Of a DNA stretch of 64,000 nt, positions 40,231 to 42,369 are shown piece by piece. The translations under genes and the position numbers were made by a program. The DNA lies in NCBI RefSeq assembly GCF_056712565.1, contig NZ_CM160072.1. One strand, 5' to 3'. Numbering within the stretch: the first letter of the stretch is position 1; each line of letters begins with the position of its first letter. The notes beneath the pieces are model-generated. The model was given only the letters and a program-made list of their open reading frames with translations. It had not been told where the DNA came from and did not search any database.

Positions 40231-40372
40231 TAATCCAGATAAGATATGATGTATCGTTTAAGTGCCTGATAAGGGTGTAATGTATGCCAATATTAACCTC
40301 GGTAATATCTCGCTACCGAGGTTAATTTTCACTTTGCAATATAATTACAGTCTCTTGCAAGTTGATTTTATC

Positions 40373-41416
40373 TTAGTAATAAGAACCGACCAATCTTATT
40401 GCCATTTCGATATTAGCAGGCATAGATGCGTCGTAGCCATACATATGGCCATATTTCGGACGTAATACTTCAGTTACTTTCTTAATAATTGCTTCGCGCT
40501 GGGCTCGCGCAAAATCAGCATGATTATTTGCCGTTTTATTCATAAATTTACCAAAACTTTCTTCTTTTCTGACTTTAATTGTCGTATCCCGAAGATCATT
40601 AAGAAACTGGCGTTGAAATTTAAAATCATCGTGTGAACCAATATTACCATGCCCGCCAATAAAATATTTCCAGTCAAGCATTTCAACCTGACGCAAATTA
40701 CTGTCATGGTAAACCAACGTATCCGATACGGCGAAGCCCATCATCGGCAGTTGGTCAGGATTCAGGAGATCCGGGCTGTGAGCTACTTTTTCCTGTTTTA
40801 GCAACCATACAGAATGGTCGTCGGTATGTCCTGCTTTAACAAATCGGTGTAATTCAATGGTCTGCTTTTCAAATTTAAACTGGTCATCTTTTTTACTTAA
40901 AACCTGAGTGGCGACGGGTAAGCGACTGTTCATAAATTGCATTTTTTCAGCAGTGGCTTTACTGGCAATAATACGCAGATTCACGCCTTCTTTCTTCGCC
41001 TCATCGTTCCAAAATGGACTATCGCCAATGTGATCCACATGGTAATGAGAATAAACCAGCGCTGTTACGGGTAATGGAGTCACATCACGAATTGCCTGTA
41101 ATAAATATTTACCGCGACCCTCCGGAGCATCAAACAGCAAAACCCCTTTGTCTCCGACATAAAACGTAGTGGAATAAAAATAGCGTTGAACATAATAAGT
41201 TCTCTCGCCAATTTTTTGTAAAATATAAGGCTGAGACATATTTCTTTCAAAAAGGTTATTGAGTTTATCGCTTGGCGATATTATTTTTTCCGCTGAAGGT
41301 TCAACATAACTTGCATTAACCGTAGACGAATTTGCAGTCGAAATTTCCGTTTGAGCAAAAACACTACCAGATATAAGAGAAGAGGCTAGAATTGTATATA
41401 TTTTAATACCTTGCAT
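40373..41416 (-). CDS. Secreted metallo-beta-lactamase-fold hydrolase (function unknown)
   Basis: 347-aa ORF with N-terminal signal peptide (cleavage near VFA-QTE), HxHxDH motif (HYHVDH) and later GHTDDH; visibly AT-rich relative to flanks. Confidence 0.8.
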   Translation of the reverse strand: MQGIKIYTILASSLISGSVFAQTEISTANSSTVNASYVEPSAEKIISPSDKLNNLFERNMSQPYILQKIGERTYYVQRYFYSTTFYVGDKGVLLFDAPEGRGKYLLQAIRDVTPLPVTALVYSHYHVDHIGDSPFWNDEAKKEGVNLRIIASKATAEKMQFMNSRLPVATQVLSKKDDQFKFEKQTIELHRFVKAGHTDDHSVWLLKQEKVAHSPDLLNPDQLPMMGFAVSDTLVYHDSNLRQVEMLDWKYFIGGHGNIGSHDDFKFQRQFLNDLRDTTIKVRKEESFGKFMNKTANNHADFARAQREAIIKKVTEVLRPKYGHMYGYDASMPANIEMAIRLVGSYY

Positions 41417-41640
41417 ACGTAGTCCTTTATTAATGTGTTGTTGATTTATAGCATCTCTGAACAGACTGTTATTTTAGATATTACTACGTTACGAGATTCA
41501 TTTTTCTTCGAATATTATGTTTATCTCATTCAAAAAATATGTTCATCATTTGATGGTTTAAATAATATCTGCAAGGCATAATACTCTACATCTTTAAAAC
41601 CTGCCTCAAAAAATCATTCATTAGTAAAAAGGATATTTAT

Positions 41641-42192
41641 ATGCAAAACATAGCTGTGGTTTATTATTCAGGATATGGTCACACTAAACTGGTTGCTGAA
41701 AAAGTGGCACAAGGCGCCCATGCAGATTTAATTTCGATTGATAACGAAGGAAATATCACTGAGCAGGAGTGGGAAAAACTGGACGCAGCCGATGCCATTA
41801 TCTTCGGTGCTCCCACCTATATGGGCGGTGCGCCATGGCAATTCAAGAAATTTGCTGATGCCAGTTCCAAAGCGTGGTTTACACGTAAATGGCAGGATAA
41901 AGTCTTCGGGGGTTTCACCAACAGCGCCAGCCTGAATGGCGATAAACAAGTTACGCTGATCTATCTGCAAACGCTGGCTTCACAGCATGGCGGTCTGTGG
42001 GTGAGTTTAGGTCAGGCTCCTGCCAATGTGCTTGCGTCAACCAGGGAAGATGTAAACAATCTGGGCGGTTCAGTCGGTTTGCTGGTGCAATCTCCAGCCG
42101 ATGCGGGTGCAGACCAAATCCCTACGGGCGATCTGGATACAGCCGTGAAATATGGTGAACGCGTAGCGACAATTACTGCGCGCTTAAAATGA
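41641..42192 (+). CDS. Flavodoxin-like-fold NAD(P)H-dependent oxidoreductase (WrbA-like)
   Basis: 183-aa ORF with N-terminal flavodoxin-like signature (VVYYSGYGHTKLVAEKV); divergent from the MBL-fold gene across an AT-rich 224-bp spacer. Confidence 0.8.
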   Translation: MQNIAVVYYSGYGHTKLVAEKVAQGAHADLISIDNEGNITEQEWEKLDAADAIIFGAPTYMGGAPWQFKKFADASSKAWFTRKWQDKVFGGFTNSASLNGDKQVTLIYLQTLASQHGGLWVSLGQAPANVLASTREDVNNLGGSVGLLVQSPADAGADQIPTGDLDTAVKYGERVATITARLK

Positions 42193-42321
42193 TGATTGCC
42201 GAATGTGACGCTGACGCGTCTATCCGGTCTTCTACATCTAAAAAGTGCCGTCTCCTGGTCAGTCAGATAAAGTTTTAACGCTGTACCCGATAACAGTTCA
42301 ACATGTACCATGTACCAAAAG

Positions 42322-42350
42322 AAAAAAAGCCAGCCTCGCTTGAGACTGGC
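42322..42350 (-). terminator. Rho-independent terminator of rpoS
   Basis: Minus strand reads GCCAGTCTC-AAGC-GAGGCTGGC followed by TTTTTTT, ~20 nt downstream of the rpoS stop. Confidence 0.85.
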
Positions 42351-42369
42351 CTTTCTGACAGATGCTTAC

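Follow-up and report, generated by a model that had tools for sequence, protein, structure and literature searches.

The 2.1-kb segment between ygbN and rpoS in phylogroup B2 Escherichia coli: a divergent gene pair for a VarG-related metallo-hydrolase and a WrbA-like flavoprotein

The ygbN-rpoS junction and its published counterpart

What occupies the junction between ygbN and rpoS in this DNA, how it came to be there, and whether its genes are tied to rpoS are the questions raised by this locus. In K-12, as stated in the first-pass annotation, ygbN is followed directly by rpoS, and this arrangement is seen in the K-12-type locus used for comparison (L001). In the window (the whole stretch of DNA analysed, 64,000 nucleotides), about 2.1 kb lies between the two genes. 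BLASTN against L001 places the breakpoints at 40218/40219, in the fourth-last codon of ygbN, and at 42323/42324, the edge of the rpoS terminator (Table 1). The insert is thus present much as first described, with its limits moved slightly from 40231-42369 to 40219-42323, and its two divergent genes are as stated, one encoding 347 amino acids on the minus strand and the other 183 on the plus strand, with start codons separated by 224 bp.

Table 1. Features of the ygbN-rpoS segment, with positions counted from the first letter of the window.
Feature	Position	Strand	Basis or remark
Polymorphic segment, phylogroup B2 "pattern III" allele	40219..42323		2105 bp replacing 59 bp of K-12
Inverted repeat, 16 nt, 94% complementary, 9-nt loop	40289..40329		between the convergent ygbN and o347 3' ends
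o347 (CFT073 c3302), MBL-fold metallo-hydrolase, 347 aa	40373..41416	-	ORF, Pfam, NCBIfam
HYHVDH (HxHxDH metal-binding motif), o347 residues 124-129	41030..41047	-	translation
Predicted Sec-type signal peptide MQGIKIYTILASSLISGSVFA, then QTE; o347 codons 1-21	41354..41416	-	translation
Divergent intergenic region, 224 bp, presumed site of both promoters	41417..41640		GC 0.268
CATAAT, candidate -10-like hexamer 5' of o183	41577..41582	+	pairwise alignment with the Enterobacter sp. kpr-6 copy
o183, WrbA-like predicted FMN flavoprotein, 183 aa, no signal peptide	41641..42192	+	ORF, Pfam, NCBIfam, PDB
REP-like palindromic element (tentative), 3' of o183	42197..42232	+	likeness to REP consensus
rpoS intrinsic terminator, right boundary in all alleles	42323..42356	-	scan: 15-pair stem then T-run

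The AT-richness that had been judged by eye is borne out by calculation, with a GC content of 0.365 over 40231-41640 and of 0.518 and 0.521 in the 2-kb flanks. The segment as a whole has a GC content of 0.404 versus 0.52 in the flanks, which is about 4 sd under the mean of 2105-bp windows taken across the 64 kb (mean 0.529, sd 0.031), and values below 0.43 occur only in those that overlap the segment. The low GC originates from the metallo-beta-lactamase (MBL)-fold gene (0.39, GC3 0.33) and two intergenic stretches (0.27 and 0.34); the flavoprotein gene, at 0.49, is near host level. This deviation, together with the existence of a third allele at the same junction (see below), argues for a foreign origin. 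No integrase or transposase is found among the ORFs of the segment, a repeat search at its boundaries gave nothing above chance-level 10-24-mers, and an Rfam search with E up to 0.1 matched no RNA family. A genomic island or mobile element was therefore rejected as a description, there being no integrase, transposase, boundary repeats or tRNA, and a non-coding RNA within the segment was rejected on the zero Rfam matches.

The first-pass annotation had pointed to a B2- or uropathogen-associated polymorphism of the mutS-rpoS region, and this polymorphism is real. In locus identity and gene families, the segment is almost certainly the "2.1-kb rpoS-proximal" insert of Culham & Wood (J Bacteriol 2000): its position between ygbN (o454) and rpoS, its size and its 347- and 183-aa ORFs all match, with no substantive difference (PMC4209514). 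It is a rediscovery of a published and already known polymorphism. The insert, described since 2000 as a B2/uropathogen marker, is carried by CFT073 and ECOR group B2, and o347 and o183 are the ORF names of Culham & Wood, reused in PMC4209514, where their paper is cited. Ewers et al. 2014 (PMC4209514) found the corresponding o454-nlpD "pattern III" in 249 of 250 B2 strains and in 2 of 260 others, and thus 249 of the 251 pattern III strains belong to phylogroup B2.

Among 5426 complete E. coli genomes, 1039 carry the whole segment; identity is 99.2-100% in the rows sampled, and the carriers include strain 536 (99.5% identity to the segment in the window) and the type strain ATCC 11775. The restriction to one phylogroup is taken from the literature, and both of these named carriers are B2 strains. 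A scan of species representatives returned zero Escherichia loci, yet ATCC 11775 carries the cassette, and that scan is thus no proof of absence from other Escherichia species. A full-text literature search on c3302, c3303, o347 and o183 returned the typing paper only, with no experiment or phenotype for either gene; the locus tags are absent from the supplementary data of a transcriptome study on temperature and rpoS in CFT073, and a search for papers on VarG in combination with E. coli gave no relevant result.

The junction occurs with at least three different contents. In O111:H8 it holds kpdBCD and a MarR gene, and this EPEC/EHEC segment (the MarR gene being slyA-like) resembles that of B2 in its junction, in its right boundary at the rpoS terminator and in the REP-like element beside it, but the genes are unrelated (hydroxyarylic acid decarboxylase). 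It also retains the K-12-type 3' end of ygbN with its terminator, whereas the B2 allele is without both. The inverted repeat where the 3' ends of ygbN and o347 converge is likely a terminator that substitutes for the missing one, and a terminator scan marks a plus-strand site within it (40307-40322). The 3' end of ygbN peculiar to B2 would point to a donor in which the pair already lay between ygbN and rpoS. The terminator of rpoS is conserved across the K-12, O111:H8 and B2 alleles. We tentatively take the palindromic element 3' of o183 to be a REP on its resemblance to a REP consensus; sites that match it at 84-88% lie, unannotated, between genes elsewhere in non-B2 genomes, and a REP-like element is found at the equivalent position in the O111:H8 allele. 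As a correction to the earlier annotation, a 1-nt deletion near position 40030 breaks ygbN in two in the window. This deletion is found in no complete genome, and the ygbN of strain 536 is frameshifted independently.

The MBL-fold protein and the flavoprotein

o347 matches Pfam Lactamase_B (PF00753, 1.8e-12), and its best family match is NCBIfam VarG_fam_MBL (NF033574) with 2.3e-48 and 165.3 bits, below the equivalog cutoff of 750. This match spans positions 40-358 of the 374 in the profile and is the only full-length match to any family; identity to a representative of the VarG clade is about 35%. On these scores o347 is a distant VarG relative and not an equivalog. The HYHVDH and GHTDDH motifs, for which degeneration on proper alignment had been left open, are real: the seven metal ligands H124, H126, D128, H129, H197 (within GHTDDH), D216 and H256 are at least 90% conserved in an alignment of 32 family members. 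The AlphaFold2 model (pLDDT 92.5) has a helical C-terminal extension, and its top Foldseek matches are 8D2Z, B1 beta-lactamases and alkylsulfatases. The best match among solved structures is PDB 8D2Z, an uncharacterised MBL-superfamily protein of Burkholderia cenocepacia (profile 3.5e-20; Foldseek E 4e-17, TM 0.61-0.70, part of the C-terminal helical region included), at only 19% identity. The PF00753 match, the ligand set and the alpha-beta/beta-alpha fold place o347 in the MBL-fold superfamily; as this ligand set is generic to the superfamily, it points to no substrate.

None of the class B beta-lactamase subclasses accommodates the protein. In subclass B1 the Zn2 site consists of Asp120-Cys221-His263 and position 121 is not a His; o347 reaches 50 bits on the B1 model (cutoff 200) and lacks any cysteine, having Asp216 at the equivalent of Cys221 and His129 directly after Asp128. 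The subclass B2 model gives 28.5 bits (cutoff 240), and for subclass B3 the sole family listed, PJM, gives 18 (cutoff 630). VarG itself, a metallo-beta-lactamase of V. cholerae, is active on imipenem and on meropenem (kcat/Km about 1e5 per M per s for the latter); its ligands are H-H-D-H-D-H, an Asp standing where B1 enzymes have the cysteine (PMC5595328). It is like o347 in full-length homology, export (predicted for o347), ligand pattern and C-terminal helical extension. However, VarG has a divergent LysR regulator, VarR, and an adjacent efflux pump, and o347 has neither, its divergent partner being a flavoprotein.

The N-terminus of o347 carries Lys5, a hydrophobic core (residues 6-20) and a VFA motif, with no Cys or RR, and a comparable hydrophobic N-terminus is present in most members of the 32-sequence alignment. 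The first-pass description of o347 as secreted thus stands as regards a predicted Sec signal peptide; these features suggest that the protein is exported and cleaved, and its location is probably the periplasm. In a word-indexed protein search, all 120 matches listed were near-identical E. coli variants. Database variants are overwhelmingly of the full 347 aa, at 99-100% identity and on more than 1000 contigs. Truncated o347 products are also present in the databases.

o183 matches the Pfam FMN_red and Flavodoxin families and aligns with PDB 3D7N ("Flavodoxin, WrbA-like protein") at 63.5% identity over 178 residues (3-180; E 3.8e-72), a full-length identity that places it in the 3D7N-type WrbA-like flavodoxin subfamily. 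Scores under the WrbA models TIGR01755 / NF002999 are below cutoff (59.5 vs 132.5 bits and 70 vs 141 bits, the latter pair for NCBIfam NAD(P)H:quinone oxidoreductase), and these models align to residues 43-183 only. Compared with E. coli WrbA, o183 is 15 residues shorter, but it has WrbA-type features in the N-terminal YYSxYGHT loop and in the PTYMGG and FTNSAS loops. "WrbA-like", the term used at first, is thus apt as a statement of resemblance.

Pairing in relatives and the shared control region

A search for related loci, seeded with a 7-sequence alignment, recovered the same divergent pair in Enterobacter sp. kpr-6, with 74% (o347) and 86% (o183) amino-acid identity, at an unrelated site that is not near rpoS. 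Between the two genera dN is 0.165 for o347 and 0.082 for o183 with dS saturated, and both genes are under purifying selection over the whole E. coli-Enterobacter divergence. The pairing is thus conserved in two genera, and the pair travels as a unit. Among the loci examined, it is known from E. coli and this one Enterobacter genome only: none of 26 other loci, including the closest outside Enterobacteriaceae, has an o183 homologue near the hydrolase relative. LysR regulators adjoin hydrolase relatives in 12 of 24 loci, and other neighbours are DoxX-like, NmrA-like and NpdG-like reductases and YgiD-type dioxygenases. Relatives of o183 form part of a DoxX-flavodoxin operon and, elsewhere, of a cluster with TetR, an alkene reductase and an SDR. 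Such context is a weak guide to function, since LysR regulators and SDR-type reductases are common everywhere.

Carriage of the pair on plasmids was considered and rejected. The best plasmid match to o347 has 32% identity and comes from non-enteric bacteria, and the plasmid matches to o183, at 77% and weaker, are in the loci inspected never beside an o347 relative.

An AAGGA Shine-Dalgarno sequence precedes the ATG of each gene by 6-7 nt. No strong site was found in a sigma-70 consensus scan of 41417-41640. The CATAAT hexamer upstream of o183 is kept in the intergenic copy of Enterobacter sp. kpr-6 and is without a good -35; it may function as part of a promoter. In strain FDAARGOS_1295 an IS1A element lies within the o347/o183 intergenic region.

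Origin and possible role of the segment

Taken as a whole, the segment is more likely than not a horizontally acquired accessory two-gene module without mobility genes. Under this explanation o347, led by its Sec signal peptide, would act in the periplasm as a binuclear zinc hydrolase of the wider VarG family, and o183 would be a cytoplasmic, FMN-dependent NAD(P)H:quinone-type reductase, the two being divergently transcribed, and perhaps co-regulated, from one AT-rich control region. A role in detoxification can be proposed tentatively, and is itself doubtful: the periplasmic substrate would be an exogenous compound whose ester, lactone or amide bond (beta-lactam-like) is opened by the hydrolase, and the cytoplasmic one a quinone or some other electrophile that the flavoprotein reduces. 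Adjacency to rpoS would reflect a recombination hotspot and not a functional link.

It is rather unlikely that the segment is a near-neutral hitch-hiker. In that case a single event of homologous recombination at the mutS-rpoS hotspot would have brought it into the B2 ancestor, linkage would have kept it there, and its genes would now have no role in E. coli and be heading for decay. Mosaic structure is documented for the region, where at least three alleles occur, ygbN has been frameshifted independently in the window and in strain 536, truncated o347 products occur, an IS1 between the two genes is tolerated, and the literature searched reports no phenotype for either, all of which would agree with decay. 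However, both ORFs are intact in the window, 536, ATCC 11775 and FDAARGOS_1295, the more than 1000 contigs carry o347 overwhelmingly at full length and near identity, and its catalytic residues are all kept. Purifying selection against the Enterobacter copies points the same way, but it is measured across the whole divergence and not over E. coli time alone. A functional tie of the islet to rpoS is highly improbable, whether as RpoS-dependent stress genes or through convergent o183 transcription that modulates the rpoS 3' end. WrbA of K-12 is a member of the RpoS regulon, o183 converges on rpoS with no strong plus-strand terminator before that of rpoS, and the conserved CATAAT without a good -35 would be in keeping with such a tie; against it, the pair in Enterobacter sp. 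kpr-6 is far from rpoS, other alleles of the junction hold unrelated genes, the rpoS terminator is unchanged, and the literature searched contains no expression data on o347 or o183.

It is quite unlikely that o347 is a cryptic or weakly expressed VarG-type chromosomal beta-lactamase of all B2 ExPEC lineages, conferring low-level tolerance of beta-lactams (carbapenems included) as it stands or upon activation, for example by an IS promoter. VarG is the sole full-length family match and the sole biochemically tested relative, a carbapenem-hydrolysing enzyme with the same ligand pattern (PMC5595328). Among solved folds with a characterised function, B1 beta-lactamases come closest, o347 is predicted to be exported as beta-lactamases are, the AT-rich control region would suit silencing, and at least one strain has an IS1 there. 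Nevertheless, o347 reaches 165 bits where the VarG cutoff is 750, at about 35% identity, it falls under every class B cutoff, and its relatives adjoin redox genes and not efflux or resistance genes. A BcII variant engineered to this ligand set (R121H/C221D) reportedly has impaired beta-lactamase activity, which also counts against such an enzyme. B2 strains have no recognised intrinsic resistance to beta-lactams (carbapenems, ampicillin), which argues against a beta-lactamase that is both efficient and expressed.

The acquired two-gene module, which we regard as the probable explanation, is ordinary as a sequence finding. What is new here is the intact set of binuclear-site ligands, the kinship with VarG, the identity to 3D7N, the Enterobacter pair and the neighbouring genes of relatives. 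The segment is a fixed, lineage-defining trait of the phylogroup behind most urinary-tract and bloodstream infections, and serves as a typing marker already. There is a slender chance that every B2 E. coli, including the ExPEC lineages ST131, ST95 and ST73, carries in its core chromosome a silent VarG-related periplasmic zinc hydrolase acting on beta-lactams or on a host- or microbiota-derived lactone or ester; with the flavoprotein this would form a two-compartment detoxification system that aids B2 fitness, or that could yield resistance after promoter-up events like the insertion of IS1 observed in one strain. If hydrolysis of a beta-lactam, lactone or ester and reduction of a quinone are indeed what the pair carries out, the segment would be a cryptic resistance or fitness determinant of phylogroup B2.

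The ygbN-rpoS junction and its B2 allele

The ygbN-rpoS junction holds 2105 bp in the window versus 59 bp in a K-12-type genome (strain PG20180175, L001), where rpoS comes directly after ygbN, as the first-pass annotation had claimed for K-12. Alignment of the two loci places the breakpoints at window positions 40218/40219 and 42323/42324. The left breakpoint lies within the 3' end of ygbN, whose last four codons read W-L-V-I-stop in the window versus W-A-V-I-stop in K-12, and the right at the edge of the rpoS terminator, which is kept in all alleles. The K-12 ygbN terminator hairpin is absent from the B2 allele, and a different inverted repeat is found there. 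The two divergent genes read from the sequence are both present: o347, encoding an MBL-fold hydrolase, and o183, encoding a flavoprotein, with 224 bp between their facing start codons. The AT-richness relative to the flanks, at first judged by eye, is upheld by computation (see table). Among all 2105-bp windows across the 64-kb window (mean GC 0.529, sd 0.031), GC falls below 0.43 solely in those overlapping the segment.

Features of the B2 segment and its surroundings in the window
Feature	Coordinates	Strand	GC	Remark
Polymorphic segment	40219-42323		0.404
Left part of segment	40231-41640		0.365
Inverted repeat	40289-40329			between ygbN and o347
o347, hydrolase	40373..41416	minus	0.39	ORF, 347 aa; GC3 0.33
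o347/o183 intergenic region			0.268	divergent
CATAAT hexamer	41577-41582			upstream of o183; conserved with Enterobacter
o183, flavoprotein	41641..42192	plus	0.493	ORF, 183 aa
REP-like palindrome	42197-42232			ygbN side of rpoS terminator
rpoS terminator	42323-42356
2-kb flanks of segment			0.518 and 0.521

The locus is a published polymorphism of the B2 lineage, as the first-pass annotation had suggested. According to PMC4209514, Culham & Wood (J Bacteriol 2000) described a 2.1-kb insert adjoining rpoS in CFT073 and in all ECOR B2 strains; the arrangement, pattern III, is found in 249/250 B2 strains versus 2/260 others (PMC4209514), and the region was still in use for typing in a 2024 paper. 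Of 5426 complete E. coli genomes, 1039 contain the full segment, among them B2 strain 536 and type strain ATCC 11775; it is chromosomal in every case (99.2-100% identity in sampled rows); a 56-nt probe from its right end agrees, with 1042 genomes. Thus, neither the existence nor the distribution of the locus is new, and the first reading was right, yet a re-discovery. The literature search found no functional study of the segment's genes.

In O111:H8 (L032), the same junction is filled by a third allele, with the hydroxyarylic-acid decarboxylase genes BCD and a gene for a MarR regulator. Its left end is as in K-12; by the rpoS terminator it has, in common with the B2 allele, a REP-like element and an A-tract longer than that of K-12. 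The REP-like palindrome (L032 about 4945-4985) is missing from K-12. The A-tract, corresponding to the terminator U-tract, is shortened in K-12, suggesting a deletion as the origin of the K-12 state. An ORF check found no transposase or integrase genes in the segment, a repeat search found no boundary repeats at its ends, and there is no RNA-family match within it. As the ygbN 3' end is diverged yet in frame, we infer that the segment came by homologous recombination within the genes on either side, the donor being already so arranged, rather than by site-specific insertion.

The window's ygbN (38867-40230) has a 1-nt deletion at 40025-40035 relative to K-12 (L001 position 1431), yielding two ORFs, 38867..40051 and 40045..40230. 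The exact 60-mer spanning it (40001-40060) occurs in 0/5426 complete E. coli genomes (best match 98.4%); the deletion is a mutation private to this strain, or else a sequencing error. In strain 536, ygbN is frameshifted elsewhere, near codon 195 (L002 1766-3131), thus ygbN seems to be decaying independently in separate B2 strains; pcm of strain 536 has an internal stop (L002 7605-8231). rpoS is intact in the window (330 aa, from MSQNTLKV) and annotated as a pseudogene in L001 (1725-2717, internal stop) and ATCC 11775 (L037 1695-2684, C-terminus missing), fitting the instability of this gene in laboratory-kept strains.

The hydrolase o347

o347 belongs to Pfam family Lactamase_B. Its sole full-length NCBIfam match is the VarG family (E 2.3e-48, profile positions 40-358 of 374), at 165 bits, far under the 750-bit equivalog cutoff; it is also far under each cutoff of the NCBIfam B1, B2 and B3 beta-lactamase models. 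Searched exhaustively, 1.84 billion cluster representatives include 1066 relatives with E of 1e-3 or less, just 66 of which reach 1e-30, and the closest beyond Enterobacteriaceae has 57% identity. One relative in the 32-member alignment described below, P0149, reaches 510 bits with the VarG model; its identity to o347 is 35% across 345 columns. In another relative, P0138 (976 aa, several genomes of about 4 Mb), the hydrolase domain is C-terminal (residues 656-952) in a far longer protein, and a Pseudomonadales MAG carries two tandem paralogues (L023 4950-6062 and 6103-7233).

The MBL motifs first read from the sequence are not degenerate on alignment: H124, H126, D128, H129, H197, D216 and H256 are at least 90% conserved among 32 full-length members, and are predicted to form the generic binuclear site of the MBL superfamily, HxHxDH...H...D...H. 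VarG reportedly uses the counterparts His152, His154, Asp156, His238, Asp257 and His301, and an Asp takes the place of the Cys found in B1 enzymes (PMC5595328). o347 has zero cysteines. The top beta-lactamase PDB sequences for the family profile are the Bacillus cereus BcII variants 2NXA, 2NYP, 2NZE and 2NZF, presumably engineered R121H/C221D mutants. In their aligned sequences (...HADHIGG... and ...GGDLVK...), a His follows Asp120 and an Asp stands in for Cys221, which is the ligand set of the o347 family.

The AlphaFold2 model of o347 is confident (pLDDT 92.5, pTM 0.88), and in it three long helices follow the MBL sandwich at the C-terminus. The nearest solved structures are 8D2Z, an uncharacterised B. 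cenocepacia MBL protein, the B1 beta-lactamases CcrA, VIM, GIM and BlaB, and alkylsulfatases, whose match extends over the helical extension; no AFDB neighbour is annotated. The N-terminus, MQGIKIYTILASSLISGSVFA and then QTE, is built like a Sec signal peptide, with n-, h- and c-regions but neither lipobox nor twin arginine, and is similar in most relatives (32-member alignment), thus o347 is likely exported.

The flavoprotein and the conserved pair

In Pfam, o183 hits several families of the flavodoxin fold. Its matches to models of WrbA-type NAD(P)H:quinone oxidoreductase are confined to residues 43-183 and stay under the cutoffs. Its identity to PDB 3D7N, which bears the title "Flavodoxin, WrbA-like protein", is 63.5% over 178 residues. 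By these comparisons o183 belongs to a distinct WrbA-like subfamily and is not WrbA itself, and the original WrbA-like label is retained.

When each bacterial species was scanned through a single genome, 27 loci had o347 relatives, and just one of these, in Enterobacter sp. kpr-6, has the flavoprotein gene as well (74% amino-acid identity for the hydrolase, 86% for the flavoprotein). The layout is the same, divergent with a 244-bp AT-rich spacer, and the location is elsewhere, with an autotransporter gene on one side and the dicD-dsbD region on the other. Non-synonymous divergence from the window is 0.165 (o347) and 0.082 (o183) versus saturated synonymous sites, which shows purifying selection on both genes since the E. 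coli and Enterobacter copies diverged. The Enterobacter genes have host-like GC (0.54-0.55), and this genome is therefore ruled out as a recent donor.

Intergenic elements common to the two copies are the ribosome-binding sites, CATAAT and a few short blocks; a consensus scan of this region in the window found no strong sigma-70 consensus. In FDAARGOS_1295, IS1A lies within this region (L033 2969-3666) of a locus otherwise 100% identical to the window, and could alter expression of either gene. We found no evidence past adjacency for a link to rpoS: the Enterobacter copy is far from rpoS, and the other junction alleles hold unrelated genes.

Neighbourhoods of relatives and possible function

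The nearest o347 relative beyond Enterobacteriaceae adjoins a MarR gene and a cluster for homoprotocatechuate degradation; TctC-type binding proteins abound on the same contig. A LysR regulator, usually divergent, lies near o347 relatives at 12 of the 24 loci examined, resembling VarR beside VarG. Other neighbours are DoxX-like membrane proteins and YgiD-type extradiol dioxygenases (4/24 loci each), NmrA-like reductases (3/24) and NpdG-like NADPH reductases (2/24). Plasmid relatives of o183 are found in Phytobacter, in an operon of HTH regulator, DoxX and flavodoxin, and in Agrobacterium, in a cluster of TetR, NADP-oxidoreductase, SDR, alkene reductase, flavodoxin and NTF2.

As redox/electrophile-response neighbourhoods recur for both families, o347 and o183 may act as a detoxification pair, although the context is a weak hint, such neighbour classes being common everywhere. 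The most interesting reading remaining for o347, a cryptic beta-lactamase, is unlikely given its weak VarG score and that B2 strains are not known to be intrinsically beta-lactam-resistant. To the published locus, this analysis adds the breakpoints to the nucleotide, the relation to VarG at a score under the equivalog cutoff, the intact ligand set, the confident o347 model, the relationship to 3D7N, the pair conserved in a second genus under purifying selection, and the context pattern.
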